2,827 nt of DNA from Enterobacteria phage CUS-3. The notes beneath the pieces were generated by a model. It worked only from the letters and a program-made list of their open reading frames with translations. It did not search any database and was not told the DNA's origin. Of this stretch, positions 539-1,762 are shown piece after piece; positions within the stretch are counted from its first letter, which is position 1, and each line of letters begins with the position of its first letter. Location: sequence record FN394989.1. One strand, written 5' to 3'. The translations under genes were made by a program, and so were the position numbers.

Positions 539-1762
539 TCTGAGCCATGTGTAAAATATTATGATGGCATTCTGTATCTGACGACCAGGGGGACATTAAG
601 TACTCAACCCGGTAGTTCATTGCACAGAAGCTCTGATTTAGGTACATCATGGAATTCTCTTCGCTTCCCAAATAATGTTCATCACTCAAACCTTCCTTTT
701 GCCAAAGTTGGCGATGAGCTGATTATTTTTGGCAGTGAGCGCGCATTTGGTGAGTGGGAAGGAGGAGAACCTGATAACCGTTATGCAGGAAACTATCCAA
801 GAACATTTATGACCAGAGTTAACGTCAATGAGTGGAGTCTGGATAATGTAGAGTGGGTTAATGTTACTGATCAGATTTATCAGGGCGGAATAGTTAACTC
901 TGCGGTTGGTGTTGGTTCAGTTTGTATCAAAGACAACTGGCTGTACTACATTTTCGGTGGGGAAGACTTTCTAAACCCATGGAGCATAGGGGATAACAAC
1001 AGAAAATATCCTTATGTTCACGATGGTCACNNNNNNNNNNNNNNNNNNNNNNNNNNNNNNNNNNNNNNNNNNNNNNNNNNNNNNNNNNNNNNNNNNNNNN
1101 NNNNNNNNNNNNNNNNNNNNNNNNNNNNNNNNNNNNNNNNNNNNNNNNNNNNNNNNNNNNNNNNNNNNNNNNNNNNNNNNNNNNNNNNNNNNNNNNNNNN
1201 NNNNNNNNNNNNNNNNNNNNNNNNNNNNNNNNNNNNNNNNNNNNNNNNNNNNNNNNNNNNNNNNNNNNNNNNNNNNNNNNNNNNNNNNNNNNNNNNNNNN
1301 NNNNNNNNNNNNNNNNNNNNNAGCGGCGGTGAAACAACGTCTTCAGCAGATGGTGCAATGATAACGTTGCATGGTTCCAGAAGCAGTACTCCACGTCGCG
1401 CGGTATATAACGCACTCGAACATCTTTTTGAGAACGGAGATGTTAAACCTTATCTTGATAATGTAAATGCTCTTGGTGGTCCGGGAAACAGGTTCTCGAT
1501 AGTTTATCTTGGCTCCAATCCTGTGGTTACCAGTGACGGAACATTAAAGACAGAGCCGGTCTCTCCTGACGAAACATTGCTGGATGCCTGGGGTGACGTC
1601 AGGTATATCGCTTATAAATGGCTGAACGCTGTCGCTATAAAGGGGGAAGAAGGGGCGAGGATACATCATGGTGTAATCGCGCAGCAACTTCGTGATGTTC
1701 TTATTTCTCACGGACTCATGGAAGAAGAAAGCACAACATGCCGCTATGCCTTTCTTTGCTAT
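539..1762 (+). CDS. Tailspike endo-N-acetylneuraminidase (endosialidase), internal and C-terminal portion; 5' and 3' ends missing, interrupted by N-run 1031-1321
   Basis: Frame 2 has no stop codons in 539-1030 (164 codons) or 1322-1762 (147 codons). Segment 1 (…YYDGILYLTTRGT…RSSDLGTSWNSL…KDNWLYYIFGGEDFLNPW…) has beta-propeller sialidase character, including an Asp-box SSDLGTSW at 629-652. Segment 2 (…VVTSDGTLKTEPVSPDE…GARIHHGVIAQQLRDVL…) matches the stalk end and C-terminal intramolecular chaperone domain of K1-phage endosialidases. The 291-N run is a multiple of 3 and keeps the frame. The ORF track misses this frame only because it has no in-window ATG start. Confidence 0.8.
1031..1321. other. 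Run of 291 N inside the tailspike reading frame
   Basis: Directly visible. Length is 97 codons and frame 2 is open on both sides, so the hidden stretch is plausibly a frame-preserving part of the tailspike between propeller and stalk. Confidence 0.9.
1532..1762 (+). other. C-terminal intramolecular chaperone / self-cleaving domain of the tailspike (peptidase S74-like), N-terminal part
   Basis: Ser codon AGT at 1532-1534 and Lys codon AAG at 1547-1549 form the S-D-G-T-L-K motif. This corresponds to the Ser/Lys catalytic dyad at the autocleavage site of endosialidase C-terminal chaperone domains (established for K1F endoNF). The domain continues into the N-run at 1763. Confidence 0.65.

Follow-up and report, generated by a model that had tools for sequence, protein, structure and literature searches.

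Predicted Ser818/Lys823 self-cleavage dyad of the CUS-3 endosialidase tailspike in a partial siaK1 typing record

Positions 1532-1549 of the window, that is, of the whole 2827-base stretch of record FN394989.1 analysed here, very probably encode the self-cleavage dyad, Ser818 and Lys823, of the K1-capsule-degrading tailspike specified by siaK1 of CUS-3, a P22-like prophage of E. coli K1. That endosialidase tailspikes carry a chaperone domain which cleaves itself off by means of a Ser-Lys dyad is textbook knowledge, and CUS-3 siaK1 is a gene that has already been published and annotated. The self-cleavage site itself is already known and is annotated in close relatives; what is described below is its correct recognition in this record and not a discovery.

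The window is a concatenated multi-locus typing record, consisting of four coding pieces separated by three runs of N (Table 1). The second and third of these runs (291 and 417 bases) are as long as the stretches that they replace in the CUS-3 genome, and the siaK1 frame is kept; indeed, since 291 bases make 97 codons, the first siaK1 spacer preserves both the frame and the real spacing. What lies under the third run was located by comparison with the complete CUS-3 genome CP000711, whose locus coordinates give 4441 for the end of the segment match, 4705 for the end of the siaK1 CDS and 4859 for the neuO ATG. Over its 441 bases the second siaK1 piece is identical (100%) to the gene in this genome, and overall the visible siaK1 parts show no difference from the CP000711 endosialidase. 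There the gene product is annotated as 'endosialidase tailspike protein' (ABQ88383; 981 aa), with a GenBank note that gives direct-assay evidence of endo-alpha-sialidase activity. The stretch 1322-1762 also matches GenBank FN394218.1 (E. coli K1 isolate IMT_8894) at 100% and at identical coordinates; that record has the same length of 2827 and the same layout, and its positions 539-1030 and 1322-1762 are annotated as partial siaK1 CDS. Judged by these matches, the siaK1 pieces are a partial record of the CUS-3 endosialidase gene (endoNK1) from another K1 isolate. The primary characterisation of this enzyme is reportedly that of Stummeyer et al. 2006.

Table 1. Features of the window and Pfam domains of the full-length CUS-3 endosialidase (CP000711). 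Residue numbers are those of the 981-aa protein; roles of residues are by homology.
Feature	Position in window	Strand	Details
Terminase small subunit fragment	1-438		
N run of 100	439-538		joins the terminase fragment to siaK1
siaK1 fragment 1	539-1030	+	endosialidase residues 487-650, catalytic beta-propeller; Pfam End_beta_propel, E 1.6e-104
N spacer	1031-1321		291 bases = 97 codons; covers endosialidase residues 651-747
siaK1 fragment 2	1322-1762	+	endosialidase residues 748-894
C-terminal end of the predicted mature tailspike, triple-beta-helix stalk	1322-1531	+	residues 748-817; End_tail_spike; 1V0E, 3GVK
Asp793 (GAT)	1457-1459	+	conserved with respect to endoNF; by offset equivalent to endoNF Asp886 and T5 pb1 Asp1239
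Arg804 (AGG)	1490-1492	+	equivalent to endoNF Arg897; CUS-3 'GNRF' aligned to 'SNRF'
Thr817 (ACC)	1529-1531	+	P1 residue, predicted mature C-terminus; column nearly invariant
Predicted scissile bond	between 1531 and 1532		
Ser818 (AGT)	1532-1534	+	catalytic nucleophile by homology, first residue of the chaperone domain
Asp (GAC)	1535-1537		
Gly (GGA)	1538-1540		
Thr (ACA)	1541-1543		
Leu (TTA)	1544-1546		
Lys823 (AAG)	1547-1549	+	general base of the dyad by homology with endoNF Lys916
Visible chaperone domain	1532-1762	+	residues 818-894; PF13884; 3GW6 aligned throughout
N spacer	1763-2179		417 bases
Chaperone residues 895-981	1763-2023		within the third N spacer; by comparison with CP000711
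siaK1 stop codon	2024-2026		within the third N spacer; by comparison with CP000711
siaK1-neuO intergenic region	2027-2179		153 bases, within the third N spacer; by comparison with CP000711
neuO	2180-2827		
Head_binding (Pfam)			residues 1-113
End_N_terminal (Pfam)			residues 146-212
End_beta_propel (Pfam)			residues 213-662; beta-barrel inserted at 324-406
End_tail_spike (Pfam)			residues 663-817
Peptidase_S74 (Pfam)			from residue 818 on; protein C-terminus at 981

Translated in the siaK1 frame, 1322-1762 is open over 147 codons and reads ...NPVVT-SDGTLK-TEPV..., in which the six codons at 1532-1549 supply S-D-G-T-L-K, residues 818-823 of the endosialidase. The initial annotation had taken 1532-1534 as the Ser and 1547-1549 as the Lys of this motif, and reading of the codons confirms both. 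By itself, a bare S-x4-K pattern is uninformative, because the composition of the full 981-aa protein would lead one to expect about 2.2 copies and four are present (at residues 262, 409, 487 and 818); the identification of the site rests on homology alignments. The presence of the other copies could be held to mean that the pattern at Ser818 is also accidental and carries no catalytic meaning, a reading to which we give practically no credence: only the Ser818 copy falls on position 1 of the Peptidase_S74 profile, this copy is aligned residue for residue with position 911 and K916 of endoNF (E 9e-61), and its Ser and Lys columns do not vary among the homologues described below. An ORF of 55 aa on the minus strand (1544-1711) overlaps the site and was dismissed, since the strong homology fixes the plus-strand frame.

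The profile searches place the boundary between stalk and chaperone domain immediately before the Ser of the dyad. Pfam PF13884 Peptidase_S74 ('chaperone of endosialidase') begins with its position 1 on Ser818, which is residue 71 of the visible fragment, and scores 44.9 bits on this fragment against a cut-off of 22 (E 1.4e-11) and 40.8 bits on the full CUS-3 protein, where it extends over residues 818-878. The match to PF12219 End_tail_spike runs to the last position of the profile (91-160 of 160) and stops at residue 70 of the fragment. In siaK1 of CP000711 the endosialidase set of Pfam domains is complete, with the S74 domain at the extreme C-terminus, directly after the triple-beta-helix stalk of End_tail_spike. 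A search of the full tailspike against NCBIfam returned no family.

The same boundary is found on comparison with solved structures. The best match of the visible fragment is endoNF in PDB entry 3GW6 (E 9.2e-61), whose '...SNPIVT-ANGERK-TEPV' is aligned to '...SNPVVT-SDGTLK-TEPV' of CUS-3. This entry, called the precleavage S911A form of endoNF in PMC8326128, prints Ala where K1F has Ser911, so that an Ala stands opposite Ser818 and Lys916 opposite Lys823. When the reference CUS-3 protein is compared with 3GW6 across the full chaperone domain, E is 1.3e-65 and the match takes in 3GW6 residues 91-274 of 275 and with them the helix region '...EAAWQRREIERIKARL...' at the C-terminus. By this alignment the chaperone fold, with the C-terminal helix of its trimeric coiled coil, is complete in the reference sequence; the isolate's own copy of this part lies under the N mask. 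The crystallised chains of mature endoNF (1V0E, 3GVJ, 3GVK and 3GVL) end at Thr910, opposite Thr817, and the K1F RefSeq entry carries two mat_peptides, of which the chaperone one spans codons 911-1064 (154 aa). The equivalence of the dyad with Ser911/Lys916 of K1F and a mature protein ending just before the Ser, both of which had been proposed from the sequence at the outset, are thus upheld: the alignment with endoNF sets Ser818 on 911 and Lys823 on K916 without moving either residue elsewhere, and the mature K1F product stops one residue short of 911.

Conservation was assessed in an alignment of 17 sequences, namely the visible fragment, its reference copy and 15 distinct phage homologues sampled along the tblastn ranking of 365 phage records. 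The homologues, which share 29-54% identity with the fragment, come from phages of Escherichia, Klebsiella, Aeromonas, Pseudomonas, Pantoea, Salmonella, Vibrio and Synechococcus. Both the Ser and the Lys are invariant (17/17) and account for two of only seven invariant columns; His862, Gly864, Gln868 and Tyr889, within 1532-1762, are likewise invariant. Thr(-1) and Asp(+1) are kept in at least 90% of the 17 sequences, and the helper residues Thr817, Arg804 and Asp793 are aligned with, and identical to, their endoNF counterparts. The Arg of the Arg804 column is not universal, and three of the 17 sequences depart from it: one from a Vectrevirus has the stalk Arg two positions earlier, and those of a Klebsiella jumbo phage and of Aeromonas phage AVP1 have none at this column, whereas Ser and Lys are invariant throughout. 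Within E. coli, two of the most divergent full-length alleles among the matches listed (98.4-98.9% DNA identity) retain SDGTLK unchanged. At the level of sequence, these comparisons establish which gene this is, which of its residues correspond to those of endoNF, where its domains meet, and that the dyad and its helper residues are conserved. On the same grounds the CUS-3 endosialidase belongs to the peptidase S74 (CIMCD) family, with every sequence-level feature that we looked for in place.

Cleavage of the CUS-3 protein itself, and the chemistry behind it, would follow by analogy from the work on endoNF, T5 pb1 and MYRF. In endoNF, cleavage takes place immediately N-terminal to S911 (PMC3828593; PMC8326128), with K916 acting as the general base and the deprotonated S911 attacking the adjacent scissile bond (PMC3828593). 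A stalk arginine, R897, is contributed by the neighbouring chain, so that the active site is complete only after the trimer has folded, and cleavage needs a correctly folded stalk (PMC8326128). The corresponding elements of T5 pb1 are the Thr1263-Ser1264 bond, Lys1269, Arg1250 from the neighbouring chain and Asp1239 (PMC4690869). Autocatalytic release is lost upon Ser-to-Ala or Lys-to-Ala exchange, as described for endoNF, T5 pb1, MrfA and MYRF (PMC4690869, PMC3828593, PMC8326128). The S911A form of endoNF is reported to stay an uncleaved trimer that resists SDS.

Applied to CUS-3, this scheme would start with trimerisation of the 109.4-kDa precursor, assisted by residues 818-981. Once the stalk has folded, Arg804 of a neighbouring chain, positioned with Asp793, would complete the active site; Lys823 would then take the proton from Ser818, and Ser818 would attack the Thr817-Ser818 peptide bond. 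The role of Asp793 as partner of the Arg folding sensor is suggested by its offset from the Ser, which is the same 25 residues as in the known systems. The predicted products are the mature spike (residues 1-817, 90.7 kDa) and a C-terminal fragment of 164 aa (residues 818-981) with a computed mass of 18.7 kDa; the value of roughly 15-17 kDa initially put forward for this fragment was too low.

The closest of the known systems is endoNF of K1F (Ser911/Lys916), the type example of Peptidase_S74, in which beta-propeller, stalk and chaperone domain follow each other in the same order as in CUS-3. Identity between the two is 69% in the visible region at the site and about 57% over a stretch of 195 residues containing the complete chaperone domain. 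Asp(-25), Arg(-14), Thr(-1) and Lys(+5) stand at the same distances from the Ser in both proteins, and the P1 Thr is shared. On the other hand, CUS-3 has DGTL between Ser and Lys where K1F has NGER, and the N-terminal particle-binding modules also differ, being of the P22 Head_binding type in CUS-3 and of the T7 tail-fibre type in K1F (review, PMC5380687). The two chaperone domains also differ in length, that of CUS-3 being 10 residues longer (164 aa vs 154 aa). A longer acidic stretch of CUS-3, IVDEDDNPVMVMED, falls where the HMMER alignment to endoNF is gapped; it occupies residues of about 920-945 (CP000711 locus 4520-4600) and is N-masked in this isolate, and a similar acidic stretch is seen in a Phapecoctavirus tailspike (ECO340P2). 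It would be a long shot to suppose that the longer, acidic chaperone domain alters the contacts with the stalk or the kinetics of release, or that the 18.7-kDa fragment has a role in the lysogen.

More distant relatives retain the catalytic core in different surroundings. T5 pb1 has the same Ser-x4-Lys dyad with the Arg at -14 and the Asp at -25, its Thr-Ser bond is the one that is cut, and an S-to-A mutation stops the cleavage (PMC4690869). However, its receptor-binding domain upstream is unrelated to that of CUS-3, the beta-hairpin 'tentacles' are shorter, and the identity between the pb1 and endoNF chaperone domains is only about 18% (PMC4690869). The ICA domain of MYRF and of Dictyostelium MrfA is homologous, depends on the same essential Ser-Lys dyad and likewise self-cleaves in a trimer-dependent manner (PMC3742443, PMC3828593, PMC8326128). 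In contrast to the tailspikes, MYRF and MrfA are membrane-tethered transcription factors without a requirement for a stalk arginine; upon cleavage their N-terminal part is set free and the domain stays membrane-bound (PMC8326128).

Whether the protein of this particular isolate matures normally, as the initial annotation had predicted from the intact Ser and Lys, is a question that the record answers in part. The catalytic site is indeed intact, and 77 of the 164 chaperone residues (818-894) are visible. The remainder of the prediction is borrowed from the CP000711 gene, because residues 895-981 (the last 87) and the stop codon are N-masked; residues 1-486 and 651-747 are likewise absent or masked. 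One could therefore imagine that domain and dyad are present in a protein that is unprocessed or non-functional through defects in the masked or unsequenced parts of the gene, as in a decaying prophage. Such a case would be in keeping with the limited view of the gene (residues 487-650 and 748-894) and with the need of endoNF for a folded stalk (PMC8326128), and other E. coli chromosomes do contain one siaK1 remnant truncated by IS3 and one copy that is split; we nevertheless regard it as very unlikely here. The visible siaK1 parts are open, the tested stretch does not depart from the intact reference gene, and Arg804, Asp793 and Thr817 are all intact. Moreover, among the 5426 complete E. coli genomes the 441-base siaK1 piece is found in 190; in 185 of these the match extends over at least 80% of the segment, and the tailspike is mostly annotated as intact. 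Normal maturation of the tailspike is a reasonable expectation for this isolate.

Two chromosomal copies illustrate how the gene can decay. In E. coli APEC E12053 (NZ_CP126928.1, locus 1733-3403), an IS3-family transposase immediately precedes a 'peptidase S74' pseudogene, in which only the chaperone part downstream of the cleavage site is left (query bases 303-441). Next come an acyltransferase gene (presumably neuO), an integrase and a tRNA-Arg. In this decayed remnant of CUS-3 the tailspike is lost, with the acyltransferase gene still annotated. In E. coli HH97 (NZ_CP116409.1, locus 1-1005), the annotation shows two ORFs in place of one tailspike gene: the first, for an 'endosialidase beta-propeller domain' protein, ends at 79, and the second, for a 'tail fiber domain-containing protein', starts at 88. 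A frameshift or a nonsense mutation ahead of the cleavage site has probably caused this split, which leaves the SDGTLK motif intact. Given such copies, an intact dyad is no guarantee of an intact gene.

The other two coding pieces of the window were also compared with known sequences. At 2180-2200, neuO reads ATGTT followed directly by GTTTTCCGTTGATG, with zero copies of the AAGACTC heptanucleotide repeat, whereas CP000711 (locus 4859-5010) has 19 copies, amounting to 133 bases, at exactly that point of neuO; there the repeat is annotated as a poly(psi) domain and no neuO CDS is called. With zero copies the neuO frame is open, and with 19 copies it would shift, since 133 is not a multiple of 3. 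This effect of the copy number on the frame fits the phase variability of neuO, which is described as phase-variable in PMC3046976. The repeat may have been removed on purpose from the typing record, or the isolate may truly be without it. As for the terminase fragment, it has no match in Pfam or NCBIfam and corresponds to PHROG 309 (terminase small subunit; E 2e-68) over positions 132-275 of 319; the 7.2-kb CP000711 stretch around siaK1 contains no annotated terminase gene.

Beyond the correct annotation of the site, the significance of the finding is small. Still, the boundary between residues 1-817 and 818-981 is useful when the enzyme is expressed as a polysialic-acid reagent or when tailspikes are engineered, and S818A or K823A would be the standard route to the uncleaved precursor.
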